NCBI GenBank assembly: GCA_020853615.1
Contig: JADYYO010000342.1
Span: forward strand, 3,172-67,171
Length of the DNA stretch: 64,000 nt
From: Thermomicrobiales bacterium
Lineage (GTDB): Bacteria > Chloroflexota > Chloroflexia > Thermomicrobiales > UBA6265
Direction: 5' to 3'
The stretch's first letter is position 1, and each line of letters starts with the position of its first letter. Under the pieces are notes generated by a model. The model made no database searches and was not told where the DNA came from. It saw nothing but the letters and a program-made list of their open reading frames with translations. Made by a program: the position numbers and the translations under genes. Of this stretch, positions 2,953 to 54,273 are shown in pieces.

Positions 2953-4839
2953 CTACGGGCCGTTGAAGACGTCGAAGGTGATCACGTCGCCCAGCATGGG
3001 CGCCGTCGTGGTCTCGACGTCGAACGAGGCCGCGATCTTGGACGCGACGGCGATGCCGAACTGCCGGACGACCACGCCCAGCATGGAGCGCACCTGGTAG
3101 GTCGCGTCCGGCTGCGCGACAGGCAGCGTGACGGTGAACGCCTGGCCCTCGACGCCGGTCGCGGTGTACGTGAACGACTGCCAGTTCGTCGGCCCGGCGC
3201 CGACCGTCGCGACGATCGTCCAGTCCGAAACGCCGTCACTGACCAGCAGGAGCGCGCCGTTGGCCGGCACCCGGACCGCGCCGGCGGCGCCGCCGATCGT
3301 GTCGGCGCCGTTCGGCGTCACCGTCGCGACGCCGCCGCCGTGCTCCGAGACCAGGACGAAGCAGCCCGGGCCCGACAGGCCCTGCGCGGCCGCGCCGATC
3401 GCCGGGAGCGGTTGCGCGATCGCGCCGCCGCTCGCGTCGAGCCGCATCCAGAGGTTGAACGTCGCCGAGACCGGCGCCACCGCCGGCGCCAGCAGGTACG
3501 GCGTCGGCACCAGCGACGGCGCGACGTCGAGCCGGGGCGCGTCGATCGTGCCCAGCCAGTTCGGGTAGACGGTGTTGACCGTCGCCAGCGAGCTCGACGC
3601 CCGCTGCAGCGTCGCGCCGACCGCGCCCACCACCGCGGCCGGCACGGCGATCGCGCTCGCGCCCTCGGTACCGATGAAGACGGTCGCGCCTGCCGGCGCG
3701 TCGATCACCGGCCCGGCGACGAGCGCGCTCGCGCCGATCTGCGACGTCTCGTAGAGCTCGAAGACGACCGTGTCGCCCGGGCCCAGCGCCGCCAGGCCGA
3801 AGAACGGCTGGCCGCCGGTGACCGTCTCGAGGACGGCCCCGTGGAGCGTCACGATGCCGCCGTTCAGCAGGTCGATCACCGCTGGCGCCGTCGTGTTGAG
3901 GTTGGTGACCTGCAGGTAGCCCTGGAAGCGGCGCAGCCCGGCGAACGACGAGCCCTCGGCCAGCTCGACGAACGCGCCGAACCCGTCGGCGCGGCCCTCC
4001 CACGTCACGCCGGTCATGTTGTACGCGCCGGCGGGCACCACCGCTGGCGAGACGAACTGGTCGTCGAACTGGATCGTGTAGCAGCCGCCGCCGCTGGCGT
4101 CGGCGCGCAAGAGGCCCAGCGCCGTGATCAGGTCCGCCCACGTGTCGAACGTGCCCGGCCCGGCGCTGCCGCCGCCCGGCTGGTAGATCAGGCAGTTCGA
4201 GATGCCGGGCGTGCCGCCGCCACCGCCGCCACCGCCGGCGTCGTTGACCGCGCCCACGGCCGCCGTCGCGGTGAACGGGATGACCGCCTTGCGGCCGCTC
4301 ACGCGGACCCGCATGAAGTTGGCCGTGACGACCGCGCTCTGCTGGCCGCCGTAGTTGGCGAACGCGACGACCGGCGCGTACGCCACGCCGTCCTCGGACG
4401 CCTCGATCGTCAGCGTCACGCCCAGGAACGAGCCTGCCGTGATGAACGTGCAGTAGGAGCCCAGCGCGCTGACGTCGACGGCCGCGCCGACGCCGTTGTT
4501 GGCCGGCATCGGCAGCGCCGCGAACTGCGCGCCGATGTCGCTAGCGCCGACGTCGGCGTTGGCGGTGAACGTGACCGCGCTCTTGCGGCCCTCGACGTTC
4601 ACGCGCATGTAGCGCGCCGCCACCTCGAGCAGCCGGCGCTGGTCGCCGTTCTGGAACGTCGTCACCGGCGCGAAGCCGGTCGCGCCGCCGGCGTCCTGCG
4701 AGATCTCGATCGTGATCGTCGCGCCGGGGAAGTCGCCGCGCACCACCACGGTCTTGTCGCGGCCCATGCCGCTCACGTCCACGGCGGCGCCCGGCCCGTT
4801 GGCGACGGGCATCGGCAGGTCGGCGAACAGGTTGGCCAT
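2953..4839 (-). CDS. large fibre/spike protein with duplicated N-terminal domain
   Basis: Start MANLFADLPMP (cat 4837-4839); two ~98-aa homologous repeats, G8 linker, ~420-aa beta-rich C-terminal domain. Confidence 0.75.
   Translation of the reverse strand: MANLFADLPMPVANGPGAAVDVSGMGRDKTVVVRGDFPGATITIEISQDAGGATGFAPVTTFQNGDQRRLLEVAARYMRVNVEGRKSAVTFTANADVGASDIGAQFAALPMPANNGVGAAVDVSALGSYCTFITAGSFLGVTLTIEASEDGVAYAPVVAFANYGGQQSAVVTANFMRVRVSGRKAVIPFTATAAVGAVNDAGGGGGGGGTPGISNCLIYQPGGGSAGPGTFDTWADLITALGLLRADASGGGCYTIQFDDQFVSPAVVPAGAYNMTGVTWEGRADGFGAFVELAEGSSFAGLRRFQGYLQVTNLNTTAPAVIDLLNGGIVTLHGAVLETVTGGQPFFGLAALGPGDTVVFELYETSQIGASALVAGPVIDAPAGATVFIGTEGASAIAVPAAVVGAVGATLQRASSSLATVNTVYPNWLGTIDAPRLDVAPSLVPTPYLLAPAVAPVSATFNLWMRLDASGGAIAQPLPAIGAAAQGLSGPGCFVLVSEHGGGVATVTPNGADTIGGAAGAVRVPANGALLLVSDGVSDWTIVATVGAGPTNWQSFTYTATGVEGQAFTVTLPVAQPDATYQVRSMLGVVVRQFGIAVASKIAASFDVETTTAPMLGDVITFDVFNGP
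4246..4836 (-). repeat. in-frame tandem duplication of a ~98-aa domain (aa 2-99 / 101-198)
   Basis: FADLPMPVANGPGAAVDVS...YMRVNVEGRKSAVTFTANADVGA versus FAALPMPANNGVGAAVDVS...FMRVRVSGRKAVIPFTATAAVGA. Confidence 0.85.
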
Positions 4840-4843
4840 CGGG

Positions 4844-5161
4844 CTATCGCTTCTTCCGGTTCCGGCGGAGGATCGCACCGCCGACGAGCAACGCGACGCC
4901 GCCGAGCACGTACGGCAGCGCCCCGCGGCAGCAGCCGCCGGCCTGCGCGGTCAGGATCGCGCGGTTCTGGATCAGGTCGCCGCGGAACTGCATCGCCATC
5001 ATCTTGGGCGTCGCGATGACGTTGCCGGACTTGTCGACCGCGCCCAGCGACGCGCACGGCCGCCCCTGGGCGCAGGGCGCGCAGCACGCGCCCAACGACT
5101 CCTCCATCTGGCCGCGGGGTCCGACGTAGAGCCGGGCGCCCGGCGCGAGCATGTACGGCAT
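4844..5161 (-). CDS. small Cys-rich tail-anchored membrane protein
   Basis: Start MPYMLAPGARLY (ATGA overlap at 5161); ends GGCCRGALPYVLGGVALLVGGAILRRNRKKR. Confidence 0.65.
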   Translation of the reverse strand: MPYMLAPGARLYVGPRGQMEESLGACCAPCAQGRPCASLGAVDKSGNVIATPKMMAMQFRGDLIQNRAILTAQAGGCCRGALPYVLGGVALLVGGAILRRNRKKR

Positions 5162-6909: not shown

Positions 6910-7245
6910 TCAGCGGCGGCGGCGAGCCGGGTTCTTGCGCTTGCGCAGGAGCAGCGCGCCGGCGACGACCGCGACGCCGCCGACCGCGACGGGGACCACC
7001 CAGCCCGGCATGCCGCCGCGCTGCTGCAGCGCCGCCTGCTGCTGCGCCGCGATCTGCTGGTAGGCCTGCGCCTGGCCGGCCGACTGCTGGCCGGACGAGT
7101 ACACCGAGACGGCCGCCTTCGCGCCCGACTTGATGAAATCGCCGATCTTGTCCAGCACGCCGTCCAGCCCGGTGGGCGTGGGGCCGCCGTAGCCGCGCCG
7201 GGCGATCAGCTCGGTGGGGCCGTTGGTGGGTTGGAAGTAGGACAT
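6910..7245 (-). CDS. tail-anchored membrane protein with NPARRRR terminus
   Basis: Start MSYFQPTNGP (cat 7243-7245); Gln-rich middle; ends VAVGGVAVVAGALLLRKRKNPARRRR. Confidence 0.7.
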   Translation of the reverse strand: MSYFQPTNGPTELIARRGYGGPTPTGLDGVLDKIGDFIKSGAKAAVSVYSSGQQSAGQAQAYQQIAAQQQAALQQRGGMPGWVVPVAVGGVAVVAGALLLRKRKNPARRRR

Positions 7246-7261: not shown

Positions 7262-7825
7262 TCAGCGCTTGCGCTTGGTGATGGTGCGGTACAGCACGAC
7301 GCCGCCGGCGGCGGCGCCCGCCCAGATCCACCACGGCAGCTTCTTCGGTGCCGGGGCGGCGGGTTCGGCGCTGGCCTTCGTCGGGATCTCGTCGATCTCG
7401 TCGTAGAACCCGCCGCCGCCACCGCCGCCACCGCCGCCCGAGGCGGGACGCCCGGGCTGGGGCGCGACCGTGCCCGGCGTGACGCTGGTCGACGTCGACA
7501 GCGCCGGGCGGCCGGGCTGCGCCTTGACCGGCGTCAGGGTCTGGAGCGGCGGGAGCGTCGTCAGCCGAGGCGGCTTGGGCGCCGGGAGCGCGGGCATCCC
7601 GCGCGGCCGGGGCACCGGGAACGCGACGGTCACGAGCGTCCGCGGCCCCGTGCCCGAGCCGCCGCTGGCGCCCGAGCCCGAGTCCTGGCCCGGTCCGCCC
7701 TGGTTGATCGCGCCGAGCGCGCGCCGGCCGCGCAGCATCGGCGCCGGCGCCGAACGCGGGGCGGGTGCGTGCGCGGCGATCGCGCCAGCGCCCTGGGTGC
7801 GATCGAGGAAGTAGTCCTGGCTCAT
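7262..7825 (-). CDS. Pro/Gly-rich tail-anchored membrane protein
   Basis: Start MSQDYFLDRTQ (cat 7823-7825, ATGA overlap); G10 tract; ends LPWWIWAGAAAGGVVLYRTITKRKR. Confidence 0.65.
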   Translation of the reverse strand: MSQDYFLDRTQGAGAIAAHAPAPRSAPAPMLRGRRALGAINQGGPGQDSGSGASGGSGTGPRTLVTVAFPVPRPRGMPALPAPKPPRLTTLPPLQTLTPVKAQPGRPALSTSTSVTPGTVAPQPGRPASGGGGGGGGGGFYDEIDEIPTKASAEPAAPAPKKLPWWIWAGAAAGGVVLYRTITKRKR

Positions 7826-8160
7826 GCGCTCCTCCGTCGACGGCCGCTGGCGTAGCCCAGGGCGAACAGGCCGACCACGACCGCGGCGGCGCCGACGGGC
7901 ACGACCCACGGCCGCTCCCGCACCCAGACGACGGCCTCGAGCGGCTTGACCGCCGAGCACAGCCCGATGCCCTTGGTGGGCGGCTTGGGCGGCGCCGGCG
8001 GCTGGCCCGGCCGGGCGGGCGCCTGCCCGCGCTGCTCCGCGGCGTGCAGGCGCAGCACGAGCGTCGCGACGCGATCGAGGCACGGATCGGTGACGATCGC
8101 GTTGGTCGCGCTCAGGACGTCGGCGATGCCGCTCATCGGCTGGTGGGTGACGTAGGGCAT
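7822..8160 (-). CDS. tail-anchored membrane protein
   Basis: Start MPYVTHQPMSG (cat 8158-8160); ends PWVVPVGAAAVVVGLFALGYASGRRRRSA. Confidence 0.65.
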   Translation of the reverse strand: MPYVTHQPMSGIADVLSATNAIVTDPCLDRVATLVLRLHAAEQRGQAPARPGQPPAPPKPPTKGIGLCSAVKPLEAVVWVRERPWVVPVGAAAVVVGLFALGYASGRRRRSA

Positions 8161-9009: not shown

Positions 9010-9648
9010 CTACAGGTTGACGATCTTGTAGCCGGGGAAGCCGACCCAGAGGACGCCGGCGGTGGTGGCCACCTCCTCGCCGCCGCCCGGGTTGAAGACG
9101 ATCCGCTCAAAGGTCGGCGTGAACCGCACGACCGAGTTGGGCGCGAACAGCGTCGGCACCGGCAGCGGAATCGCGTTGTCGGGCCGAGACAGGATCGGCG
9201 CGACCGGCGCGTTCTGGAACTCGCGCTGCGAGCCACCGTCGGTCACCTCGTAGCTGATGTCGATCAGGTCGGTGCCGAGCTCCTGGGTCGGCAGCGGCCA
9301 CGTCGAGACCGGCCGCCACGCGCCGAAGTTGGTCGCGTTCTCGGGCTCGGTCGGACGCCAGATCGCCATCGGGTAGTGCGTCGCGATGAACGGGCCGTCC
9401 TGCGAGATCTCGAAGCGCATCGCGGTGGCGCGCGTGCCGGCCACGTCATCGTTGAACGGGAGCACGGCGCAGAGCGTGTAGAAGATCCGCCGGCCCGGGA
9501 TCGAGTCGATCTGCTGCGTGATCGACTGGGGCTGGTTCTGCAGCGCGCTCACCAGCTCGTTGTAGCGAGCGGCGATCTGCGCCATCTGCTGCTGCTGCAC
9601 CTTCTGGCGCTGCAGCAACTGGCGGACGACAACTTCGACGTTGGCCAT
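9010..9648 (-). CDS. beta-rich virion protein, capsid candidate (N-terminal Gln-rich coiled coil)
   Basis: Start MANVEVVVRQLL (cat 9646-9648); strand-patterned sequence, no TM segment; adjacent to a second beta-rich protein. Confidence 0.75.
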   Translation of the reverse strand: MANVEVVVRQLLQRQKVQQQQMAQIAARYNELVSALQNQPQSITQQIDSIPGRRIFYTLCAVLPFNDDVAGTRATAMRFEISQDGPFIATHYPMAIWRPTEPENATNFGAWRPVSTWPLPTQELGTDLIDISYEVTDGGSQREFQNAPVAPILSRPDNAIPLPVPTLFAPNSVVRFTPTFERIVFNPGGGEEVATTAGVLWVGFPGYKIVNL

Positions 9649-9793: not shown

Positions 9794-10369
9794 CTACTGC
9801 GCGTCGCGGGTCTGCAGGCCGTCGATCAGGTACATGATGACCATCTGATCGTCGGTGGCCGCGCCGTTGATCAGGTCGAGCACGTTGGTCGTCCCGACCG
9901 CGAAGAACTCGGCGTTGACCGAGATGTTCTGGCGGACCGGGATGATGATCGGACGCGCCAGCTTGAGGATGGCGGTCTGGCTCGGGTCGCCGTTGTTGAG
10001 CACCGAGTCGGCGGCGTCGAAGCCCGCGATGCCACCGCCGGCCGGGAAGTACCAGCACGGCGCGACGAACTGCGGCTTGTCGCCGAGCGTCAGCGTGAAG
10101 TACAGCTGCGACACCGTCTGCAGGTACAGATCGCGGTGGTTGGTGCCGTCGAAGTACAGCCACGCGCGGAGCGCGAGGATGACGTAGGTCTGGTCGCTCG
10201 CGAGCTGACCGGGGACCTGGAGGTTGGTGCGGTCCAGCTGGCCGACGTTCGCGTTGCCGAACAGGCGGGTGCTGGGACCGACCGCGGGGGTGGGCGAGCC
10301 GGTGCTGCGGACCAGAGTGTCCCAGACGGGCTGGTGGCGGCGCTCGCGGACTCCGTGCAGGCGGGGCAT
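9794..10369 (-). CDS. beta-rich virion protein, capsid candidate
   Basis: Start MPRLHGVRERR (cat 10367-10369); alternating-hydrophobic strands (YVILALRAWLYFDG, LYFTLTLGDK, IIIPVRQNISVNAEFFAV). Confidence 0.75.
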   Translation of the reverse strand: MPRLHGVRERRHQPVWDTLVRSTGSPTPAVGPSTRLFGNANVGQLDRTNLQVPGQLASDQTYVILALRAWLYFDGTNHRDLYLQTVSQLYFTLTLGDKPQFVAPCWYFPAGGGIAGFDAADSVLNNGDPSQTAILKLARPIIIPVRQNISVNAEFFAVGTTNVLDLINGAATDDQMVIMYLIDGLQTRDAQ

Positions 10370-10527: not shown

Positions 10528-11862
10528 TCAGCCGCCGAAGCCGCCGGCGAAGACGCCGCCGTACAGGTTGCGCGGGTTGTCGTAGGCGGCCGACGCGTTC
10601 GGGATCGCCTTGGTGAACGAGCGGGCCGGCACCGCCTCGAGCGCGGGCATCTGCTTGATCGGCGCGAGCAGGTTGCCCTGGCGCTGGCCGCCCAGGTACG
10701 CGTCGGCGCCCAGCTCCTCCTCGAGCCCCAGCTCCTCCTCGACCTGGCCCAGCTCCTCCTCGGCACCGACCTCGAGGTAGTCGCCCACCTCGACGTAGTC
10801 GCCCATCGTGATGTTGTCGTCGATCGGCGGCGCGCCGTTGACGCCGACGTAGTCGCCCAGGCCGTCCGCGTAGACGTCGCCCAGGCCGATCTTGGCCTTC
10901 ACCGAGGCCGGCGCGATCGCCGACAGCGCGTTGTCGAGCAGGTTGAGGCCGAGGCCGATCATCACCGAGGTGCGGTACTTGGCCAGCTTGGCCACCTTCT
11001 TGGTGGCGAAGTGACCGATCACGCCCAGGCCGATCGCCATCGCGGTGCCCTGCCACTGGCTCGGGAGCCGGTTGATGAGCGGCACGCGCGAGGCCAGCGT
11101 GTACGACGCCGCGCGGGCGCCGTACAGCGAGACCGCGATCGGCACCACCTGGGTCAGCGTGTCCATGAACACGCCGGCCGGGTTCGAGCGCATCCGGTAG
11201 CGCCGGATCGTCGCGCGGCCGAGCGCGGTCTTGTAGCGGTTGCGGATCGCCCGGCGGGCGCGGAGGATGCTCCGCTGCGTCGACGGCCGCGGGTTGCGGC
11301 GGTAGCGCCGGCGGCGGGCGTGGCTGCGCATCCGGCGCGCCGGGTTCCGCCGGCGGCGCCGGCGGGGCGCGTGGCTCGCGGCGGCGTTGTGGCGCCGGCG
11401 GCGGCGCCGGCGGGGCGCCGGGTTGGCGCGGCCCTCGGTCATCGCGACGGCGCGGCGGCGCCGGGCGCGGGTGCGGCGCGCGCGCCGGGCGTGCGGGCGG
11501 GTGCCGGGGCGGACGCGCCGGCGCGCCCGGGTGCGGGTCCGGCTGCGCCGGCGGCGCCGCTTCGGGGCGGACGTGCGGGCGGTCGCGCGCCGCTTGCGGC
11601 GGCGGCTGGTGGACGGGCGGCGCCGAGAGGCACCACGGCGCCGCTTCGTCTTGGCTCGCTTGCGGGCGTGCGCGAGAGCGGCAGCGCCATGGAGCTTCTT
11701 CCGGGCCATGTTCTTCTTCCTCCGAGGACGAGTGGGTGCGGCCGAGGTGGCCGCGCGCGACCGGCGGCCGTACCGGCCCCAGTCCTTGTGCGAGGTGGAC
11801 GCGCGCTTACCCCGTGCGTGCTTCCGGGGAGCCGGGGCGGGGTTCACGTAGGTGAGCGGCAT
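10528..11862 (-). CDS. protamine-like Arg-rich / membrane / acidic tripartite protein
   Basis: Full ORF. G/C third positions and AAG Lys codons persist through the Arg-rich half. Alternative start at 11709 (MARKKLHG, AGGAAG upstream). Confidence 0.75.
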   Translation of the reverse strand: MPLTYVNPAPAPRKHARGKRASTSHKDWGRYGRRSRAATSAAPTRPRRKKNMARKKLHGAAALAHARKRAKTKRRRGASRRRPSTSRRRKRRATARTSAPKRRRRRSRTRTRARRRVRPGTRPHARRARRTRARRRRAVAMTEGRANPAPRRRRRRRHNAAASHAPRRRRRRNPARRMRSHARRRRYRRNPRPSTQRSILRARRAIRNRYKTALGRATIRRYRMRSNPAGVFMDTLTQVVPIAVSLYGARAASYTLASRVPLINRLPSQWQGTAMAIGLGVIGHFATKKVAKLAKYRTSVMIGLGLNLLDNALSAIAPASVKAKIGLGDVYADGLGDYVGVNGAPPIDDNITMGDYVEVGDYLEVGAEEELGQVEEELGLEEELGADAYLGGQRQGNLLAPIKQMPALEAVPARSFTKAIPNASAAYDNPRNLYGGVFAGGFGG

Positions 11863-11921
11863 GGTTCTCTCTGGACCTCGAGACGCGGGTTGTCACCCGC
11901 ATCGACCGTGGGAGAGAACAC
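11863..11921 (-). promoter_or_regulatory. structured 5' leader (nested hairpins) abutting the start of the Arg-rich gene
   Basis: GTTCTCTC (11864-11871) pairs with GAGAGAAC (11912-11919); inner hairpin GCGGGT-TGTC-ACCCGC (11885-11900). Confidence 0.4.
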
Positions 11922-12669: not shown

Positions 12670-13158
12670 CTAGTGGACGATGCCGCGCCGCTCGACGCCG
12701 AGCCGGCCGCCCCAGATCAGCGCGAGCAGCCGGCGCTTGCTCTGGATGATCAGGAGCGCCTTGCCGGACGGCGTCGTGTAGAGCTCGGGCAGCGGCTCGG
12801 TGGCGCCGACCTTGCGAACGCGGCCGCCCTCGTCGCGGTACGCGAACCCCAGCGACTTGCCGAGCCACGTGAAGCTCTGCTGGCGCTGCAGCCAGCTCGG
12901 CACCGCCACCAGGTCGGCGTCGGCCGGCGGCCGCGCCTCGACGCGGTGGGCGATCACGCCGGCGCCGTGCTCGTGGATGTAGTCGATCCAGCCCTCGTCC
13001 TGGCCCGTCGTCGGGTTGAGCTTGTCCGAGCGGTAGAGCACGTGCTCGGCCGTGCCCAGCCGGATCACCTCCCGCGGGATCACCAGGTCGGCGTGGAAGT
13101 CCCCCTCGCCGCGCCAGTCGCGGGAGTGGAACGTCTTGAACATCCGGCGCGCGCTCAT
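12670..13158 (-). CDS. hypothetical protein (162 aa)
   Basis: Start MSARRMFKTFHSRDW (cat 13156-13158, ATGA overlap); only the tail of tracked 755-aa ORF 12670-14937 is genuine. Confidence 0.75.
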   Translation of the reverse strand: MSARRMFKTFHSRDWRGEGDFHADLVIPREVIRLGTAEHVLYRSDKLNPTTGQDEGWIDYIHEHGAGVIAHRVEARPPADADLVAVPSWLQRQQSFTWLGKSLGFAYRDEGGRVRKVGATEPLPELYTTPSGKALLIIQSKRRLLALIWGGRLGVERRGIVH

Positions 13159-13951
13159 CGGCGCCGCCGCCGGCGCCGGGCCGGGTTCGAGGTGGGCGCG
13201 GGCTTCTTGGGCTTCGCGAGGTAGTAGGCGGCGACGCCGAGCGCGCCCCACTTCGTCCACGTCCAGATCTTGCTGACCGTGTCGGGGATCGCGAGCACGG
13301 CCTCGCCGACCTCGACGACGACGCCGACGACCGTCCGCACGATCGCCGCGAGCTTCATGCACGCCGCCGACGCCGCCTGGAACATCGAGACGATGAACGG
13401 CTTGATGCACTCGAAGTACGCGACGGCCGTGTACCCGTTGCTGGTCGTCGTCATGCTCTCGAGCACCCACCGCCGCAGGCCGGGCGCCTCGATCACGCGG
13501 ATGTTCTTCGCCTGGGCTTCCTTGATCGCGCTCGTGTACTCGAGCGACGCGTTCATCTTCTTGTAGATCAGATCGAGGCGCCCGTAGAGGAACGTGCGCG
13601 CGTCGGCGGCGGCGCCCCGCTTGATCGACGCATCGATCGCGGCCGAGGCCCCCTTCAAGTAGGCGAACGTGGCGTCGCGCAGGCGGATCACCTCGTCGAC
13701 CGAGAACGTGTCGGGCGGGCGCCACGTCGCCGCGAGCCGGTTGGTCTCGCTGTCCAGGACGGCCGTGGCCGCCTTGGCCTTCGCCATGCACGCCTCGTCG
13801 GACGGCGCGCCGAACAGCGCGTTCGCCAGATCCTTCCACGGGTCGGTGATGAACGACAGCAACCCGTCGGTGGGCGTCGCGGTCACGAGCCCGGCGTGGG
13901 CCGGGGCCGTGTAGCGACCGCGGCTGATCGGCAACGTGCGGCGGTAGATCA
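13155..13951 (-). CDS. tail-anchored membrane protein with NPARRRRRRR terminus
   Basis: Start MIYRRTLPISRG (ATGA overlap at 13949-13951); C-terminal hydrophobic segments; ends WGALGVAAYYLAKPKKPAPTSNPARRRRRRR. Confidence 0.75.
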
Positions 13952-14275
13952 TCGCGACTTCCCTCCGAGGAGCACCTTGGCGCCGACGACGCCGGCGGCC
14001 ACCAGGAGCCCGATCTTGACCAGGCCCAGGCCGCCGCCGTCGTCGCTCGCGCCGAGCGCGCCCGCGCGATCGATCGCGACGCGCCCCTGGGCGTGAACAC
14101 CCGTGCCGACGAACCGCGCGCCGGCCGGCAGCGGCCACGCCGCCTGCTCGACGGTCGATCCGAGCGCCCGCGCGCGCAGGTGCGTCGGCTTCGGGGCGTG
14201 CGCGCCGACGTCGTCGCCGGCGGCGTCGTAGTAGTCGAACTGCCGCTGGCCGGGGTTCCAGACCGAGTAGCGCAT
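13949..14275 (-). CDS. tail-anchored membrane protein
   Basis: MRYSVWNPGQRQFDYYD...; ends GLGLVKIGLLVAAGVVGAKVLLGGKSR. Confidence 0.65.
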   Translation of the reverse strand: MRYSVWNPGQRQFDYYDAAGDDVGAHAPKPTHLRARALGSTVEQAAWPLPAGARFVGTGVHAQGRVAIDRAGALGASDDGGGLGLVKIGLLVAAGVVGAKVLLGGKSR

Positions 14276-14279
14276 CGGC

Positions 14280-14804
14280 TTAGAAGACCCAGTGGACGTG
14301 GTAGTTGACGCGATCGCGCCTGCCCCGGCCCTTGTTGCGGCGGCGCGCGAGCAGCACGAGCGCCGCCAGCCCGACCGCGCCCACGACCAGCGCCTTCTTC
14401 TCGCTGTCGCTCAGGTCGTCGACGAACCCGGCCGGGGCCTGGAAGTTGCGATCGCGGAGCGGCGGGTACGGGAGCTGGTAGGGCGAGAGCCCGCTCTCGT
14501 ACAGGTCGCCGCCCGAGAGCTCGCGCGTCTCGGCGGCCCGCTGGCCGCCGGGCACGCCGCCGGGCCAGCCGTGCCACTGGAACGGGTACGACCGCGCCTG
14601 CGCCGCGAAGCGGTAGTACGCGGTCGAGCCGGGCGGCTGACGCCGCCCGTTCGCGAGGTTGATCGCCGTGCGGATGATCGGGCCGGGTGCCGCGATGCTC
14701 CCCAGCGCAGGACGCCCTGGCGCGCAGCACGCCATCACGTGAACGACGTTGGGCGTGCGGTGGCACGCACACGGGCAGTTGTTGTAAGCAGGCGGCAACG
14801 GCAC
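14280..14804 (-). CDS. Cys-rich protein with C-proximal TM and basic tail
   Basis: GTG start at 14804 preceded by GAGGAG + 7 nt (VPLPPAYNNCPCACH...); ...ALVVGAVGLAALVLLARRRNKGRGRR... Confidence 0.6.
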   Translation of the reverse strand: MPLPPAYNNCPCACHRTPNVVHVMACCAPGRPALGSIAAPGPIIRTAINLANGRRQPPGSTAYYRFAAQARSYPFQWHGWPGGVPGGQRAAETRELSGGDLYESGLSPYQLPYPPLRDRNFQAPAGFVDDLSDSEKKALVVGAVGLAALVLLARRRNKGRGRRDRVNYHVHWVF

Positions 14805-14815
14805 GGGTGTTCTCC

Positions 14816-15523
14816 TCAGCGGCGACGGGTCCGGCGGACGCGGGTGCGGCGCGTCGGCGCGCGGCGACGCTTGCCCTTCGCCGGCGGGATCGCGAACTTG
14901 AACAGCGCGAGCCCGGCGACGCCGAGCGCGGCCGCACCCAGCGGCGACTGGAAGCCGCTTGGCAGGTACGTCAGCGCCGACACCGACGCGCTGCTCTGGA
15001 TCACCGACGGCGGCGGGTGGACGACGCCGCCCGAGCTCGAGGGCTGGGACGGCTGGCTGCTGCGCGGATCGGCGACCACCGGGTAGTTCATCTCGGCGGC
15101 GACCTGCTGGATCCGCGCGACGATCAGGTCCGCGGCCTGCGCGATCGTGTCGCACGGCTGGCCGCGGATGTTGGCCCACTGCAGGCCCATCGCCTGGGCC
15201 TCGGGCGTGATCGCCTTGCTGCCCAGCCACGCCATCGCGTCGGCGACGGCGTTCACCGTCGCGGGCCCGATCCGGCCGTCGACGGCGATCAGCTTCTTGC
15301 CGGCCTTGCTCAAGACACGGTTGGTCTGGCGCTGCAGCTCCTTGAACGTCGCGAGCGTCGCGGCGTTGGTCGGCAGGCAGATCCCCTTGAGCGGCGAGCA
15401 CGAGCCTTGCCGGTTCGCGGTGCTGCACCAGTTCGCGGCCGCGATCGACCCCAGCTCGGTGGGCGGCGCCAGCGGCGGCTCGAGGCTCACCATGTGATAG
15501 GCCATGCGGGGGACGTAGGGCAT
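14816..15523 (-). CDS. peptidoglycan-binding-domain protein, tail-anchored
   Basis: PG_binding_1-like LQRQTNRVLSKAGKKLIAVDGRIGPATVNAV; AGGAG RBS; ends GVAGLALFKFAIPPAKGKRRRAPTRRTRVRRTRRR. Confidence 0.8.
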   Translation of the reverse strand: MPYVPRMAYHMVSLEPPLAPPTELGSIAAANWCSTANRQGSCSPLKGICLPTNAATLATFKELQRQTNRVLSKAGKKLIAVDGRIGPATVNAVADAMAWLGSKAITPEAQAMGLQWANIRGQPCDTIAQAADLIVARIQQVAAEMNYPVVADPRSSQPSQPSSSGGVVHPPPSVIQSSASVSALTYLPSGFQSPLGAAALGVAGLALFKFAIPPAKGKRRRAPTRRTRVRRTRRR

Positions 15524-16013: not shown

Positions 16014-17051
16014 TCACCGCTTCTTCGTGGCGACGTAGAGGAGCCCCAGCCCGCCGACGACGGCCGCGCCGACCGCGACCGGCTTGACCCAGGTCGCGCG
16101 GGCCGGCGGCGGCGGCGGCGGCGGCATCGCGGGGAGCGCCGCCGCAGCGGCGCCACCGCCGCCACCGCGGTTGCAGACGCCCGAGGCGACGCTCGCGCCG
16201 GCGGCGCCGGCCGGGCCACCGGCGGCGGTCGCGGCCAGCTGGCCCGCGCCGGAGGTGACGACCGAGCAGGCCAGCCCGCCCAGCGCCGAGATGCCGCGGG
16301 TGACGAAGTTGCCGACCGACGAGGCCGCGCTCGAGGCCGCGCCGGCGACCGCGCCGGCCGCCGACTTGACGCCCGAGCCGATCGCCTGGCCGGCGCGCTT
16401 GACCGCCGAGACGGGGTTCAGATCGCTCAGACCGAAGCCCAGGCTCTCGAGCGCGTGGCTGGTCGCCCGGGGCACGGCGTCCGGGTAGACGCCGAGCGCG
16501 AGCTGGCCCTGCCGGCTCACCGGCTGGCGCTGGCCGCGCTGCGCGCGCCGCCCGGCCTCGACGATCTCGCGCAGCATGCCCTCGGACATGCTGGTGGCGA
16601 TCGCCTGCTGGAGCGCGTCGCGCGGGCTCGCGCCCTGGCTGCGGAGCTGCGTCGCGCGCGCCTCGACGGTCCGCCAGAGCGAGCGATCGATCGCGTCGAA
16701 CATCGCCCGGAGCGCCGCCGTCCGGTGCTCCGACGGCACGCTCCTGATCGAGTGCATGATCCACGACGCCGCCTTCTGGCCGTAGCCGGCGATCGCGTCG
16801 CCCTTGGCCGCACGCTGGGGCGCCTGCGCGCCCAGCGTGTCGTCGCCGAGCGAGCCCAGGCCCGCGTCCTTGCGGTCCAGGAGCGTCGTCCCGGCGCGCT
16901 GCGCCTGGAACTCCGGCACCAGCTCGCTGATCGTGCCGCGGGGCAGCCACGCGGTCGTGAACGTCCCCCGGCCCGGCGGCTCCGCCATGACGTAGGCCGG
17001 GATCGCGTAGCCGGGATCCCACGCGGACGGAAGGTTGTAGAAGTTCGACAT
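16014..17051 (-). CDS. Gly/Ala-rich tail-anchored virion-module protein
   Basis: Start MSNFYNLPSAWDPG (cat 17049-17051); P8 tract then VKPVAVGAAVVGGLGLLYVATKKR. Confidence 0.7.
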   Translation of the reverse strand: MSNFYNLPSAWDPGYAIPAYVMAEPPGRGTFTTAWLPRGTISELVPEFQAQRAGTTLLDRKDAGLGSLGDDTLGAQAPQRAAKGDAIAGYGQKAASWIMHSIRSVPSEHRTAALRAMFDAIDRSLWRTVEARATQLRSQGASPRDALQQAIATSMSEGMLREIVEAGRRAQRGQRQPVSRQGQLALGVYPDAVPRATSHALESLGFGLSDLNPVSAVKRAGQAIGSGVKSAAGAVAGAASSAASSVGNFVTRGISALGGLACSVVTSGAGQLAATAAGGPAGAAGASVASGVCNRGGGGGAAAAALPAMPPPPPPPARATWVKPVAVGAAVVGGLGLLYVATKKR

Positions 17052-20892: not shown

Positions 20893-21464
20893 GGGTGGTG
20901 ACACTACGCGATCCACCGGGCGGGTTCTAGCGCCGTTCGTGCGGCGTTTTCGCGAGCCCCGATCGCGCACGGGCGCAGCTTTCGATCGCCACCAGGCCGA
21001 GACCGTTGTGGCGTTTGGGTGCCGCTCGAGCGCGCGGGCAACGCCAAACCGCCGCGCAACTGCGCTCGGGGCCCGGTTTGGCGTTAGCGGATCCTGTTGC
21101 CAAAACGCGGATCGCGGTGCCGTTCCGGAGCGATCGATGGCGCGCAAGCGCGATCTGCGGCCTGGTACCGCGGTGGCCCCGGTCCCGCGCTGGACCGGGC
21201 GCCGGATGGCCCCGGTGCGATGCGATGCCACACCAGCCTACAGTGTAGGTGTTGCGGCCCGCAACATGGTTAAAATCCCCCGCCAACCTGTCAGGTTCCC
21301 GGACACTTTCCGGTGGATTTTCACCACGTGCCCGGTCAAGTACCCGGAAACACTGCGCCTAGAACCCGGCATGCCGGATGCTTTGACCGGGAATGCGGCC
21401 GGAATCCTCCGGCGCCCCCGGCTGGACAACCGGGGCCCGTCAACCCTCACCGACAGGATACCCG
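20893..21464. promoter_or_regulatory. 572-bp divergent control region between late (-) and early (+) operons
   Basis: Lowest-GC stretch. TTTGGCG/CGCCAAA inverted repeats (21010-21108). Palindromes CCTACAgTGTAGG (21237-21249) and GTTGCGgccCGCAAC (21251-21265). TAAAAT box at 21271-21276. CCGGA-N4/5-TCCGG palindromes at 21299-21313 and 21399-21412. Confidence 0.6.
20901..20906 (-). promoter_or_regulatory. -10-like TAGTGT, 8 nt upstream of GTG 20892 (leaderless late-operon promoter candidate)
   Basis: Minus strand reads gatcgcgTAGTGTcaccacccGTG. Confidence 0.35.
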
Positions 21465-33058: not shown

Positions 33059-33679
33059 TTGCTGCCCACGACCTACGATCCGCTGTTCCGCCGCTACGCG
33101 GGTTCGATCCCGGTCGCCTACCTGCGCGCGCTCACGCAGCGCGAGAGCGGCTTCAACCCCCGCGCCAACGCCGGCAAGGCGGCCGCGCAGGGCCTGCTGC
33201 AGATCACGACCGTGGCGCGCGACGCCTTCAACCGCGCCCAGGGCACGAGCTACACGCGGGACGACACGCTCGATCCCGAGGTGAACATCCGGATCGCGAC
33301 CAACCTGCTCCAGCGCATCATCGCCAGCTACCGCGCGCACCCGAGCGCCAACATGCGCGAGGACTGGAGCAACCCGGCGTTCGTCCAACTGCTGACCGCC
33401 GGCTGGAACGCCGGCTACTCCGAGGGCGGCGGCGTCGGCAAGGTCGCGCGCTACCTCGAGCAGCGCAACCTGCCGGTCACGCCCGCCACGGTCTACCAGC
33501 ACGCCGGCGCGGCCGGCGCGGTCGCGTTCTTGTCCGATCCGGCCCGGGCCCGCTGGCACCAGTCGGTGGCCGAGCTCTACCTGGCGCAGCCCGATCGCGC
33601 CTCCGCCGCCACGCCGGCGCTGGGCCTGCTGGCCATGGCGCTGCTCGCGTGGGGCGGCTACACCCTGCTGACGAGGTGA
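33059..33679 (+). CDS. lytic transglycosylase (SLT domain) with C-terminal TM anchor; endolysin candidate
   Basis: LTQRESGFNPRANAGKAAAQGLLQIT (catalytic-Glu motif ES-GLLQI); TTG start; ends LGLLAMALLAWGGYTLLTR. Confidence 0.75.
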   Translation: MLPTTYDPLFRRYAGSIPVAYLRALTQRESGFNPRANAGKAAAQGLLQITTVARDAFNRAQGTSYTRDDTLDPEVNIRIATNLLQRIIASYRAHPSANMREDWSNPAFVQLLTAGWNAGYSEGGGVGKVARYLEQRNLPVTPATVYQHAGAAGAVAFLSDPARARWHQSVAELYLAQPDRASAATPALGLLAMALLAWGGYTLLTR

Positions 33680-39319: not shown

Positions 39320-39937
39320 ATGGCGCTCGACCTCGGCTTCCGGAAGCCCGTCCCCGACAACGTCTTTGCCGAGGTGATGAGCGGGTGGGGCCGGCCGCGC
39401 GCCGGCGGCAAGGAGCACTCGGGGCTCGACATCCTCCTGCCGATCGGCAAGCCGGTCGTGGCGATGGCGGACGGGCAGGTGATCCGCGTCCAGGCCACCG
39501 ACGACGGCGGCTCGGCCGGCATCTTCCTCGTGATCCGCCACCCGTCGGGGATCTCGAGCCGCTACATCCACCTGGGCCGGGCCGACGTGCGGCTCAACCA
39601 GCAGGTCGCCAAGGGCCAGGTGATCGGCGCGTCGGGCAACACCGCGATCAAGAACAGCCCGCCGCACATGCACGTCGACATCAAGGTGCCGGCGGCGCTC
39701 TTGCCGCAGATCGAGGCGGCCGCCGGCAAGCCGCCGGGCGGGTGGCACCCGCTGGTCAACCCCTGGGGCTACGGCGTGCCGGCCGAGCCGTGGATCCCGG
39801 TCGACCGCTACTCGGCCCGGACGCTCGAGGACGCGCAGCGCAACGGGATCCCGCTCTACCGGGGCGGGGCCGCGAAGGCGGTCGGGCTCGCCGCGCTGCT
39901 GCTCTTGGGCTGGGGGCTCTACCGCCTGACGCGCTAG
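39320..39937 (+). CDS. M23/LytM metallopeptidase with C-terminal TM anchor
   Basis: HSGLDILLPIGKPVVAMADGQV, RYIHLGRADVRLNQQVAKGQVIGASGNT, PPHMHVDI; ends AVGLAALLLLGWGLYRLTR. Confidence 0.8.
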   Translation: MALDLGFRKPVPDNVFAEVMSGWGRPRAGGKEHSGLDILLPIGKPVVAMADGQVIRVQATDDGGSAGIFLVIRHPSGISSRYIHLGRADVRLNQQVAKGQVIGASGNTAIKNSPPHMHVDIKVPAALLPQIEAAAGKPPGGWHPLVNPWGYGVPAEPWIPVDRYSARTLEDAQRNGIPLYRGGAAKAVGLAALLLLGWGLYRLTR

Positions 39938-40573: not shown

Positions 40574-41188
40574 GTGCCGATCCGCGGCCAGCGCGTCGTG
40601 ATCGTCGGGGACAGCCTGTCGGCCGGGCCGCACACGCCCGGCCAGGTGCTGGCCGATCGGCTCGCCGCCGCCGGCGCCGACGTTCGCGTGAACGCGCGCG
40701 TCGGGCGCAGCGCCAACAACTTCTACGGCCGCGAGGACTGGCGGGGCCAGCTGCAGCAGATCGCGGCGACGCACCCCGACGTCGCGATCGTCGTGCTCGG
40801 CACCAACGACATCGGCCTGTCGATGACCGTCGACGCCCAGCGCATGACGCAGCTCCGCGACGCGCTCGCCGGCGCCGGCGCCGACGTCTACGCGTTCGGG
40901 CCGCCGACGTTCCCGCCCGGCACCCGGCTGGTCGCCGGCCAGCCCCAGGTCGTGCGGATGATGCGCGACGTGTTCGGCGGTGATCGCTTCATCGACCTGA
41001 CGCCGCTGACCGCCGACCTGGTGACGAGCCAGCACCGGACCGGAGACCAGGTTCACTTCACCGCCGCCGGCGGCGACGTCGCCGGGCAGCGCATGGCCGA
41101 CGCGTTCCTGCGGGCCTCGAGCGCGCCGGGCGGCGGCTGGCCGGTCGCGGTCGCGCTGCTCGTGGCCGGCTGGTTCCTGCTGCGGTAG
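40574..41188 (+). CDS. SGNH/GDSL hydrolase (esterase) with C-terminal TM anchor
   Basis: GTG start; VVIVGDSLSAG (block I), VLGTNDIG (block III), GDQVHFT (block V DxxH); ends GGWPVAVALLVAGWFLLR. Confidence 0.75.
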   Translation: MPIRGQRVVIVGDSLSAGPHTPGQVLADRLAAAGADVRVNARVGRSANNFYGREDWRGQLQQIAATHPDVAIVVLGTNDIGLSMTVDAQRMTQLRDALAGAGADVYAFGPPTFPPGTRLVAGQPQVVRMMRDVFGGDRFIDLTPLTADLVTSQHRTGDQVHFTAAGGDVAGQRMADAFLRASSAPGGGWPVAVALLVAGWFLLR

Positions 41189-52099: not shown

Positions 52100-52621
52100 T
52101 CAGGCGGGGTCGGGGGCGTCGGGGCCGCCGACCGCGCCGGGGATGTCCTCGGCCAGCGCGACGTTCGGCTGCGGGTGGCGCGCGCAGAAGTGGTAGGTCT
52201 CGAAGGTCGGGGTCTCGGGCTCGTCGGTCTTCATCAGCAGCACCGAGACCGCGTCCATGACCGCGCCGTCCTCGACGTTGCCCTTCTTGAGCACGTCTCG
52301 GACCACCTGCAGGTCGGCGCGCAGCTTGTCGCACTCGTCATCGGCGTGGCCGATCTTGGTCATCAACTCGTCGACCAACGCGATCGCCCGCTGGCGCTCC
52401 TGCCCGTTGGCCTTGAGCATCTCGGACAGCGAGGCCCAGAGCGGCGCGATCGCCTTGCGGAGCCGGCCGCCGGCGGTGACGCCGTGGACCTCGGGCAGCT
52501 TTGCCGCCCACCACCCCTCCGGCAACTCGGCCCCGCAGAGGGCCGGCGCCTCGACCTGCTGATCGCAGGCCTGCTTGGTGGCGGGGTCGATGCCGTCGCA
52601 GAACAGGAAAGCCTTGTGCAT
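52100..52621 (-). CDS. hypothetical protein (173 aa)
   Basis: Full ORF MHKAFLFCDGIDPATKQACDQQVEAPALCG...; convergent with the upstream gene. Confidence 0.75.
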   Translation of the reverse strand: MHKAFLFCDGIDPATKQACDQQVEAPALCGAELPEGWWAAKLPEVHGVTAGGRLRKAIAPLWASLSEMLKANGQERQRAIALVDELMTKIGHADDECDKLRADLQVVRDVLKKGNVEDGAVMDAVSVLLMKTDEPETPTFETYHFCARHPQPNVALAEDIPGAVGGPDAPDPA

Positions 52622-52726
52622 GCGGGTACGATAAGCCCGCTCGGTTGACGGTCAATGGCGAGGCTGCATATACTTCCGAACACCTACGGGCGCGACCTCC
52701 CTCAGCGCACAAGTCGGAGCCCCAGC
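52622..52726. promoter_or_regulatory. back-to-back divergent promoters sharing a palindromic -35
   Basis: Plus strand TTGACG (52645-52650)-N18-TATACT (52669-52674), then GGAG + 7 nt + ATG 52727. Minus strand TTGACC-N16-TATCGT (52633-52628) + 6 nt + ATG 52621. Core TTGACgGTCAA. Confidence 0.6.
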
Positions 52727-53434
52727 ATGCCCAAGCCCGCCGCGTCGAAGTCGCCCGCCAAGCCCACCAAGACGCGCCCCGGCGCCGTGCGGCGCCGGCG
52801 GGCCCGCGCGACGGCCCGGGCGGTCATCCAGCGCAGCAACCCGGCCGGCGGCGGCTGGGGCGAGCTGGGCGCGATCGCCAAGCAGGTGGGCGCCGGCGCC
52901 GCCGGCTACGCGGGGACGCGGGTGGTCCAGCGGATCGCGTGGACGCTCACCCACAAGCGCCGGCCGACGTGGAGCAAGCACGTCCAGGCGCTGGCGGGCG
53001 TCGCGACGTTCGGCGCCGTGCTCTACGGGGCCTCCAAGATCCGGGCGCTCGACGGCTACCACGAGGCGGTCCTGGTCGGCTCGGGCGTCGCGGCGGCGCA
53101 GGGCGTCGTGCAGGCCTACGTGCCGAAGTACGCGTGGCTGCTCCAGGACCCGCGCGGCGACGCGGGGCGTGCGTTGCCGGCGGCGGCGCCCGAGGCGCCG
53201 GCCGCGCAGGGCGACGACGATCTCCTCGAGCAGCAGATCCAGCAGATGGAGCGGCTGCCGCAGCGGCCGCCGCAGCAGCGGCGCGCGCCGGTCGCGCAGG
53301 CGCTGCAGACGGCCGCCGCCGCAAGCGGCGACGGGATCGACCTCGACGAGAAGCTGCTCGAGGAGCTCGGCGACGAGGACGTCGACGACCTCTACGCCGG
53401 CACGTTCGAGAACCCCACCCTGTTCGCGAACTGA
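52727..53434 (+). CDS. paralog of the 10528-11862 protein (basic N-term / hydrophobic core / acidic C-term)
   Basis: MPKPAASKSPAKPTKTRPGAVRRRRARATARAVIQRSNPAGG...; WSKHVQALAGVATFGAVLYGASKIRALDGYHEAVLVGSGV aligns with QWQGTAMAIGLGVIGHFATKKVAKLAKYRTSVMIGLGL; ends LEELGDEDVDDLYAGTFENPTLFAN. Confidence 0.75.
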   Translation: MPKPAASKSPAKPTKTRPGAVRRRRARATARAVIQRSNPAGGGWGELGAIAKQVGAGAAGYAGTRVVQRIAWTLTHKRRPTWSKHVQALAGVATFGAVLYGASKIRALDGYHEAVLVGSGVAAAQGVVQAYVPKYAWLLQDPRGDAGRALPAAAPEAPAAQGDDDLLEQQIQQMERLPQRPPQQRRAPVAQALQTAAAASGDGIDLDEKLLEELGDEDVDDLYAGTFENPTLFAN

Positions 53435-53441
53435 GGCCCCG

Positions 53442-53735
53442 ATGCCCTACCTCGCCGCGAGCAGCCTGGGCGCCGACGAGACGACGGGATCGACCGTCGG
53501 GCTTGAGGTGCTCAACCGGGTCGACCTGCGCACCCAGCAGATCCTGGCCGGCCAGCGGCGCGCCGAGGCGCGCTGGAAGTGGCAGACGATCGCCGCGGTC
53601 GCCGGCGCCGTGTTCGCGGCGGTCCGCCTGGGCATCATCGCCGTGCCGCACGTGCGGGCGCGCCGCCAGCAGCGCCTGGGGCAGCTGGGCGAGGCCACGC
53701 CGAACCCGGCGCGCCGGCGCCGCCGGCGACGGTGA
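53442..53735 (+). CDS. small membrane protein with NPARRRRRRR terminus
   Basis: MPYLAASSLGADETTG...WQTIAAVAGAVFAAVRLGIIAV...GEATPNPARRRRRRR. Confidence 0.7.
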   Translation: MPYLAASSLGADETTGSTVGLEVLNRVDLRTQQILAGQRRAEARWKWQTIAAVAGAVFAAVRLGIIAVPHVRARRQQRLGQLGEATPNPARRRRRRR

Positions 53736-53935
53736 GCGCCACGCGGCCCCGGGCCGCCGTCGCCGCGCTCCTGGCGGTGGCCGGCCACCAGCCCAACCAC
53801 GGCTCCGTCCAGTGCGAGCGGTGCCGGCGGTGGACGCCGGCGCTCTCCGCCGAGGGGAGCTACCACTGCGCGTGCGGCGACGCCTGCTACGTCGAGCCCG
53901 CCCGCGCCGCCGATCAGTCGCGGAACTCGATGTAG
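53732..53935 (+). CDS. small zinc-ribbon-like protein (67 aa)
   Basis: GTGA overlap; ...VQCERCRRWTPALSAEGSYHCACGDAC. Confidence 0.5.
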   Translation: MSATRPRAAVAALLAVAGHQPNHGSVQCERCRRWTPALSAEGSYHCACGDACYVEPARAADQSRNSM

Positions 53936-54273
53936 AACTCGATCTCCGGGGTTGCGGCCGCGCCGTCTTCGTTGGTGACCTCGATCTGGAACGCGAGGCC
54001 GGTGCCGCTCTTGACGATGCGCAGCGGCACGGCGGTCGCCGGCGCGTCGCCGACGAAGTTCCATGTGACGCGGACCGACTCGGTCAGCGGGATCGTGTCG
54101 CCCTGGTAGGCGTACGGCTTGGGGTTGAACCCGTCGGGCAGCGCCTCGGCGCCGACGACGGTGGAGCCGAACAAACCGAACAGGCCGCTCGCAGCGGCGG
54201 CGAGCGAGAGGCCGGTGACGCGCACGCAGCGGTCGCTGATCTGGGTCTTGACGGCGGTTCCGGTGAAAGCCAT
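53914..54273 (-). CDS. small beta-sandwich-like protein (119 aa)
   Basis: GGAGA RBS + 7 nt; MAFTGTAVKTQISDRCVRVTGLSL...LAFQIEVTNEDGAAATPEIEFYIEFRD. Confidence 0.7.
   Translation of the reverse strand: MAFTGTAVKTQISDRCVRVTGLSLAAAASGLFGLFGSTVVGAEALPDGFNPKPYAYQGDTIPLTESVRVTWNFVGDAPATAVPLRIVKSGTGLAFQIEVTNEDGAAATPEIEFYIEFRD

Follow-up and report, generated by a model that had tools for sequence, protein, structure and literature searches.

A distant paralogue of an Arg-rich structural-operon protein and its small tail-anchored partner in an uncultivated virus lineage

The A-B unit

The window is the whole stretch of DNA analysed here, 64,000 nucleotides (nt) of contig JADYYO010000342.1 (GCA_020853615.1) with a G+C content of 72%, and all coordinates refer to it. 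Our subject is a pair of plus-strand genes, A (52727–53434) and B (53442–53735), which a first-pass annotation had described as a second, remote copy of an Arg-rich protein gene (V, minus strand, 10528–11862) followed by a small membrane protein. We find that A is a distant relative of V, and that the pairing of A-like genes with small tail-anchored proteins is conserved and syntenic in an uncultivated lineage of viruses of ~70–100 kb and counts among its core features.

Coding frames were called from third-position G+C (GC3 frame plot), which separates the frames cleanly and backs both A (235 amino acids (aa), GC3 0.98) and B (97 aa, GC3 0.96) as coding. On our reading of the sequence, a GGAG ribosome-binding site (52716–52719, +) stands 7 nt before the ATG of A at 52727, and the A homologues P0001–P0004 begin at the same MPKP. 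The ATG of B follows the stop codon of A by 7 nt, with a GAGG that overlaps this stop codon and lies 5 nt before the B start. A and B are real, translationally coupled genes that form a two-gene operon.

A is a distant paralogue of V

A begins with a basic tail (residues 1–38: 12 K/R, no D/E) that runs into the hexapeptide RSNPAG (residues 36–41; nt 52832–52849). There follow a Gly/Ala-rich core of three helices (residues 44–131), with YVPKYAW at nt 53117–53137, and an acidic tail (residues 141–235: 20 D/E, 7 K/R) ending in DDLYAGTFENPTLFAN, in which the motif DDLYAGTF (nt 53384–53407) precedes ENPTLFAN. The maximal open reading frame (ORF) of V encodes 444 aa, and the GC3 profile and the close homologue P0009 make 11709 (MARKKLHG) its most likely start rather than 11862, giving a protein of 393 aa. 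V has 95 K/R in its first 236 aa, with several NP-polyR units and an RSNPAG at nt 11173–11190; beyond its basic part come the hydrophobic core, repeats of EEELG and, at the very end, LYGGVFAGGFGG (nt 10531–10566).

The first-pass annotation had proposed this common architecture and a pairwise or profile alignment of the two proteins. By BLASTP, A and V are 27% identical over 122 aa (E 3e-4). In Smith-Waterman alignments the full-length proteins score a z of 7.7, above all 2000 shuffles, and the hydrophobic cores by themselves a z of 4.1, with 7 of 2000 shuffles reaching the score. When a 9-sequence A alignment was compared with a 16-sequence V alignment, hhalign returned a probability of 95.2% and an E of 2.6e-8 over 105 columns, which reach from the end of the basic tail through RSNPAG into the helices. 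Moreover, in reciprocal hmmsearch runs against a local set of every ORF in the window and in the retrieved loci, the hidden Markov model (HMM) of each family found the other family as its best non-self match (1e-7 to 1e-4), noise beginning at 0.06–0.7. The RSNPAG hexapeptide, which fits the [RK]xNP motif that closes the basic region of the V family just ahead of the core, is identical and occupies the same junction in both proteins (aa 36–41 of A, aa 225–230 of V). The alignable core and the basic N-terminus ending in RSNPAG therefore stand as first described, save that the first motif block given for the core requires a one-residue gap in V. So does the much shorter Arg region of A: its basic tail of 38 aa compares with a protamine-like basic domain of ~100–330 aa in the V family.

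The C-termini, described as acidic and NP-containing in both, are a different matter. Their acidic character and a terminal LYxGxF are shared, but the two C-terminal halves align no better by Smith-Waterman than 2000 shuffles. The end motif is [DE][DE]LYxGxF in A and LY[GQA]G[VI]FxGGFG in V; P0389, a distant member of the A family, ends in DDLYAGVFAGGFGQ and V ends in NLYGGVFAGGFGG. The V-family C-terminal region is marked by EEELG repeats, PVPARSFTK and YDNPxxLYGGIFxGGFG, and A has neither the repeats nor PVPARSFTK.

A likeness of composition only, between two unrelated proteins that each have basic, hydrophobic and acidic parts, would account for the behaviour of these C-terminal halves and would fit the low complexity of A and V outside the core. 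It would not readily account for the profile-profile E value over 105 columns, for reciprocal HMM matches that stand clear of the noise, for the outcome of the core-only shuffle test, for an identical RSNPAG at the same junction or for LYxGxF at the extreme C-terminus of both, and we regard it as hardly credible. By these comparisons A is a true but distant, ancient paralogue of V over its N-terminal two thirds.

V lies directly upstream of the gene for a 191-aa protein (9794–10369, −), an ultra-conserved beta-sandwich protein that we use as the marker of the lineage. This arrangement holds in every relative examined, including those in which the 191-aa protein is only 43–44% identical, and the V family has at least 144 members. 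V-type genes precede the 191-aa gene at all loci examined, but the gene for A is ~42 kb distant from V, on the opposite strand, and the basic tail of A counts no more than 38 aa; A therefore represents a separate paralogous family and not a V orthologue. The split is ancient: the family of A alone numbers at least 250 clusters at 50% identity, and A-like and V/191-aa genes co-occur at conserved relative positions in genomes whose 191-aa proteins are only ~62–86% identical. The locus is not well described as a duplicated cassette, as had been suggested: only A has a counterpart, B having none beside V, where the next gene is that of the 191-aa protein.

The A family and its predicted structure

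A word-indexed search found eight homologues of A only. An HMM search run exhaustively over 1.84 billion cluster representatives (50% identity clusters) raised this to 311 clusters at E<1e-3, 250 of them at E<1e-10. The proteins are all ~180–280 aa long. Of 42 sequences, 41 have an NP dipeptide in the K/R-rich tail, as a rule 18 residues ahead of YA(G/A)TR. The tail leads into a conserved core (…KRxPxxxKH…YHxxIVxGSGIAAxQ…YxPxxxW), after which come a low-complexity acidic stretch and a terminal LYxGxF motif. We also observe that in most of them (alignment A5) the last residue is Asn (…FAN, …FEN, …GGN); the last codon of A is at 53429–53431.

In an AlphaFold2 model of A, made from a 66-sequence alignment, residues 50–130 have a pLDDT of ~90. 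The predicted core helices span residues 44–78, 80–104 and 112–131, with a basic helix (18–34) ahead of them; the acidic tail is of low confidence and the tails are flexible. The two C-terminal core helices are Gly/Ala-rich and moderately hydrophobic, which is compatible with, though no proof of, a membrane hairpin with both tails on one side. Sequence and fold searches gave no PDB sequence match and no similar solved structure for A.

B and its tag

B has a single strong hydrophobic segment at about aa 45–71 (nt 53574–53654; Kyte-Doolittle 2.33 for aa 47–71) and a basic tail with 11 K/R in its last 27 residues, ending in NPARRRRRRR (nt 53703–53732). It is conserved next to A, at 89% identity in one relative (L001) and at 57% in a more distant one (L004), where the tail reads RRERRRSR and has no NP. 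The last ten residues of B are identical to the end of a 265-aa structural-operon protein (13155–13952, −), in which a C-terminal hydrophobic segment is followed by …TSNPARRRRRRR (nt 13158–13187). Since the coding DNA of the two tags differs at synonymous sites, the shared tag is not a recent copy. The NPARRRRRRR-tagged 97-aa membrane protein of the first-pass annotation is thus real, but its tag also ends the 13155–13952 protein, and shorter versions end other structural-operon proteins. No significant homology between B and the C-terminus of the 13155–13952 protein was found by BLASTP, HMM or hhalign. As the homology tests are not significant, we claim for B a likeness in architecture, position and identical tag only.

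A small tail-anchored ORF follows the A-like gene in all 13 IMG/VR loci, and also in L018 and L031. These B-like partners are 92–145 aa long and start within 12 nt of the A-like gene in 12 of the 13 IMG/VR loci; in L041 the first called ORF lies 89 nt away. An SLGxD-like motif and an amphipathic helix are common to them, and a hydrophobic anchor stands at the C-terminus together with a few basic residues.

The size of B (97 aa), its one hydrophobic segment and its charged, very basic C-terminus fit a generic holin architecture, which raises the possibility that the pair sets the timing of lysis, with B holin-like and A its regulator. Holins of temperate phages, like their exclusion proteins, are small membrane proteins with charged ends, sometimes with promoters of their own. 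However, neither Pfam nor PHROGs gave a holin family match, and the SLT, M23 and PG-binding genes (33–42 kb of the window) are not adjacent to B: the wall-degrading enzymes lie 13–20 kb away and bring their own anchors. The same anchor and basic tail end at least eight structural-operon proteins and hence are not specific to holins. A lytic role is, in our view, very unlikely.

Promoter of the unit

A sigma-70-type promoter of A-B, TTGACG-N18-TATACT, lies at 52645–52674 (+) and matches 10 of 12 consensus positions. It is the sole 10/12 match in bases 1–60000 of the window, ~0.1–0.6 such matches being expected per scanned segment. Its hexamers are identical in L001, an 81%-identical relative with a different spacer sequence, and in L004, whose A is 54% identical, TTGACC-N18-TATGCT is found upstream of the A-like gene. 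Only two promoter-like sites occur in 20 kb of L004, both just upstream of the A-like gene, and in L010, a relative of lower G+C content, a strong terminator hairpin lies downstream of the A unit. The strong promoter first proposed for the second copy is the only match of its strength in 60 kb and conserved in two relatives; the separate location of the copy, put at 40 kb from the virion operon, is likewise borne out. To judge from so close a fit to the consensus, the host polymerase could transcribe the unit in its unmodified form.

On the minus strand, a divergent promoter-like site (52628–52655; TTGACC-N16-TATCGT, a 9/12 match) precedes the gene at 52100–52621 (−). The −35 hexamers of both divergent promoters are held in a palindrome, TTGACgGTCAA (52645–52655), in an intergenic region of 105 bp, and the palindrome is conserved in L001. 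We considered that the palindromic −35 might be an operator and dropped this hypothesis; TTGACgGTCAA occurs a single time in the window.

Distribution and synteny

A-like and V/191-aa genes are found on the same contig in the window, on a 72,394-bp contig (P0002, P0009) and on SRR21686404_8550 (L004 and L008), and six of the eight IMG/VR contigs longer than 50 kb that carry the 191-aa gene also have an A-like gene. On all co-carrying contigs the two are on opposite strands, and in the window and six IMG/VR contigs they are 27–43 kb apart. Between the window and the L004/L008 virus, identities are 86% for the 191-aa protein, 61% for the V core, 57% for B, 54% for A and 53% for the integrase.

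This pattern bears on the suggestion that A-B serve in superinfection exclusion or immunity. Here the two proteins, made from a host-type promoter in lysogens or early in infection, would sit in the cell membrane, where they would mimic V and block the entry of related viruses, A for example competing for the docking partner of V by way of the LYxGxF end common to both. A strong sigma-70 promoter that is conserved and has no equal within 60 kb would suit such a role, as would the resemblance of A to V in core and terminal motif and the position of A-B between regulatory/modification genes and other non-structural genes; the presence of an integrase makes lysogeny plausible. Exclusion genes are usually patchy, however, whereas A-B are conserved and syntenic across the lineage like core genes, and a conserved core pair argues against an exclusion moron. 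Moreover, A diverges from its L004 homologue like an average gene, a search of 185,579 species genomes turned up no integrated copy of the lineage, and PADLOC gave no match for A, B or their neighbours. Compared with known holins and exclusion proteins, A-B differ in having no family match, in not lying beside an endolysin gene and in a distribution that is conserved, not patchy. We consider an exclusion function rather unlikely.

In the window, L001, L004, L010 and L017, the A-like gene comes after a block of integrase, HTH, replication and methylase genes, with A-B directly following the HTH, DnaA_N-like and methylase genes. This suggests another possibility, namely that A-B form an early membrane anchor whose polybasic tails tether replicating or segregating viral DNA. 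The phi29 protein p16.7 is an early membrane-anchored DNA-binding protein with an N-terminal anchor and a folded, dimeric DNA-binding domain. The likeness is that of a small viral protein, early and near replication genes, that combines a membrane anchor with a DNA-binding part. The host-type promoter, polybasic tails that adjoin hydrophobic segments and a ParB-like gene in the window all agree with such an anchor. In contrast to p16.7, A consists of a polybasic tail, a three-helix core and an acidic tail, with no similarity detected, and neither sequence nor fold likeness to any DNA-binding membrane protein was found. With 12 basic residues the tail of A is short of charge and shows no specific DNA-binding fold, it is the structural operon that contains both the paralogue V and the tag in common with B, and in L017 and L019 the A-like gene is directly followed by homologues of the spike-like structural protein 2953–4839. 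A role in anchoring replicating DNA is thus unlikely.

The structural operon

The 191-aa protein, the probable major capsid protein, has 674 homologues, the top 120 being 72–100% identical, and its AlphaFold2 model (pLDDT 66) is beta-rich and of beta-sandwich type. A conserved 212-aa protein (9010–9648, −) follows it. The two are likely to be the capsid genes of a lineage without recognisable hallmark genes.

At least eight structural-operon proteins, all on the minus strand, end in a hydrophobic segment and a short K/R tail: 4844–5161, 6910–7245, 7822–8160, 13155–13952, 13949–14275, 14280–14555, 14816–15523 and 16014–17051. Two of the tails contain NPARRR. Relatives show the same pattern, which suggests a lipid-containing virion. 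An SLT transglycosylase, an M23 peptidase and a GDSL hydrolase (33059–33679, 39320–39937 and 40574–41188, +) each have a C-terminal hydrophobic anchor.

Several large spike- or fibre-like proteins have in common an N-terminal domain of ~200 aa, present in multiple copies per genome (window 2953–4839, −; L017 10636–13735; L014 10691–11266 and 13387–13938), and in some relatives genes with this domain come directly after the A-like or the 191-aa gene. In L004, just after A-B, a 291-aa protein with hydrophobic segments (10989–11864) contains an internal NEQLYGGVFEG, with the same LYGGVF motif as at the ends of A and V.

Neighbouring genes and the nature of the element

The A-B unit is bordered by single minus-strand genes, 52100–52621 and 53914–54273. 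The latter, convergent to A-B, encodes a beta-rich protein of 119 aa; it is kept beside the A-like gene in L001 and L031, and on the L004/L008 contig its homologue (in L008) is ~24 kb from the A-like gene. A possible third gene of the operon (53732–53935, +) is a 67-aa Cys-rich ORF (CxxC...HCxC; GC3 0.99) whose start overlaps the B stop codon. Its status as a gene is uncertain because the L001 match is split over two frames, and it may be a frameshifted gene or no gene at all. Further away, ~500 bp between the divergent structural and plus-strand modules (~20900–21450) have no frame-specific GC3 signal and a G+C content that dips to 0.59; regulation or an origin is a possible function of this stretch.

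Among the products of the window are an integrase, a ParB-like protein, methylases, glycosyltransferases and enzymes that degrade the cell wall. Scans of A, B, V and neighbouring proteins against Pfam, PHROGs, NCBIfam and PADLOC brought no meaningful match, and the large structural-operon proteins had none in Pfam, PHROGs or NCBIfam. The called genes of the window include no Walker-A ATPase. L004 has, near its A-like gene, a 606-aa DUF87/AAA_22 P-loop ATPase (13092–14912, −), of which no homologue was found in the window. Scans of the DNA found no tRNA and no Rfam family.

Searches at the DNA and protein level found no relative in 50,697 phage records or 72,556 plasmids. A scan of the 185,579 species genomes with a narrow A query (A1) returned nothing, and the 191-aa alignment matched there only on contigs of metagenome-assembled genomes (MAGs) of 5.6–84 kb, four of six being 68–84 kb. 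Lineage contigs (L011–L016; P0132, P0186) were binned in Gemmatimonadota, Actinomycetota (Galbitalea), Kiloniellales, 'Deltaproteobacteria', Thermomicrobiales and Kofleriaceae MAGs. Because most matches are whole contigs of 68–84 kb, host assignment from these bins is unreliable, and because all lie on MAG contigs assigned to unrelated phyla, they indicate neither a host nor an integrated state. IMG/VR contigs of the lineage measure 75–104 kb. Full-text literature searches, which were not exhaustive, found no description of the lineage or its families. From this we conclude that the element belongs to a lineage of uncultivated viruses, essentially without annotation, whose genome measures ~80 kb.

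A possible role in a lipid-containing virion

The explanation that we tentatively favour, while holding it to be somewhat short of probable, makes A and B part of the core equipment of a virion that contains lipid, as membrane or assembly components with a promoter of their own, and not accessory proteins. The virion or its assembly site would contain a lipid membrane, as suggested by the many structural-operon proteins and the three wall-degrading enzymes that end in a hydrophobic anchor. A would insert in the viral or assembly membrane as a helical hairpin, which would place both its tails on one side. The short polybasic tail could then bind DNA or anionic lipid, and the acidic tail would present the terminal [DE][DE]LYxGxF, docking on the same partner as the LYGGVF end of V, probably a capsid or assembly protein. 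B would be the tail-anchored partner of A, with the same poly-Arg end as the structural-operon protein. The separate promoter suggests that A-B are made at a different time or dose from V.

Several observations weigh against the placement of A and B in such a virion. Both this placement and the presence of lipid in the virion are predictions. The core helices of A are only moderately hydrophobic (Kyte-Doolittle 1.1–1.5 over 19 residues), so that 'membrane' is a prediction for this core and a soluble bundle is possible. Host-type promoters close to consensus more typically drive early or lysogenic genes than structural ones, and BLASTP, HMM and hhalign gave no statistical support for homology between B and the widespread B-like partners. 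We recognised neither a packaging ATPase nor a portal or known capsid protein in the window. Foldseek matches of the 191-aa protein (PDB, BFVD), many of them to single-jelly-roll capsid proteins, are weak (E 0.002–0.2, TM ~0.3), and as these jelly-roll-like fold matches are only weak, its capsid assignment is tentative. Finally, none of the eight proteins with an anchor and K/R tail has a signal peptide, which creates a topology puzzle: large N-terminal domains without a signal peptide ahead of anchors and poly-Arg tails do not fit simple insertion rules.

Relation to known viral proteins

In PRD1 (P7, P14, P16, P18 and P32) and PM2, some of the membrane proteins have been proposed to link capsid, vertex and membrane. 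The window virus resembles these phages in the many small hydrophobic-anchored proteins among its structural genes and in having a membrane-anchored muralytic enzyme. It differs from them in genome size (~70–100 kb in the lineage versus 10–20 kb) and in its poly-Arg tails and protamine-like basic domain of 230 aa, which are not known from PRD1 or PM2 proteins. Pfam, PHROGs and NCBIfam showed no sequence or profile similarity to PRD1 or PM2, the PDB searches gave no sequence or fold match, and neither a double-jelly-roll capsid protein nor an FtsK/HerA ATPase was recognised in the window.

In adenovirus pVII and Mu, short protease sites punctuate a basic region, much as NP motifs interrupt the basic region of V. 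As a functional analogue of the adenovirus core and cement proteins pVII, Mu and pVI, V joins an Arg-rich region of genome-neutralising type to a part that is amphipathic or hydrophobic and to a conserved peptide at the C-terminus, and the capsid gene is next to its own. The differences are the lack of homology, a bacterial host, the fact that no viral protease was identified, and an A with a short basic tail only. The Asn-Pro site of reovirus mu1 is that of a self-cleaving viral protein of the asparagine peptide lyase type; here we see only a conserved NP dipeptide, with N or D at the C-terminal position, and no fold similarity. The families of A and B are described in none of the libraries searched: the proteins are new in family and architecture, while in kind they are viral and associated with a membrane or the genome.

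Significance

Were A, B and V indeed genome-facing and membrane-anchored, they would represent a new way to pack and anchor DNA in a bacterial virus, by poly-Arg tails on membrane proteins and not as naked DNA under pressure. A more far-reaching proposal, which we put forward as speculation with a low chance of being right, is that a major, undescribed lineage of lipid-containing bacterial viruses of ~70–100 kb, in which no terminase, portal or known capsid gene is recognisable, uses a family of membrane-anchored, protamine-like proteins (V and its short-tailed paralogue A) and a set of tail-anchored poly-Arg proteins, B among them, to couple genome to viral membrane. The invariant NP dipeptides on either side of the basic runs would then be sites of processing or self-cleavage that release poly-Arg peptides; this would be a bacterial counterpart of adenovirus-type core proteins. 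The lineage is widespread, with hundreds of protein clusters and contigs of 68–104 kb from many environments, and is dark to current marker-based annotation. Within it the A/V pair offers a natural experiment, in which a core and a docking motif are held in common and tail length, promoter and genomic position differ.

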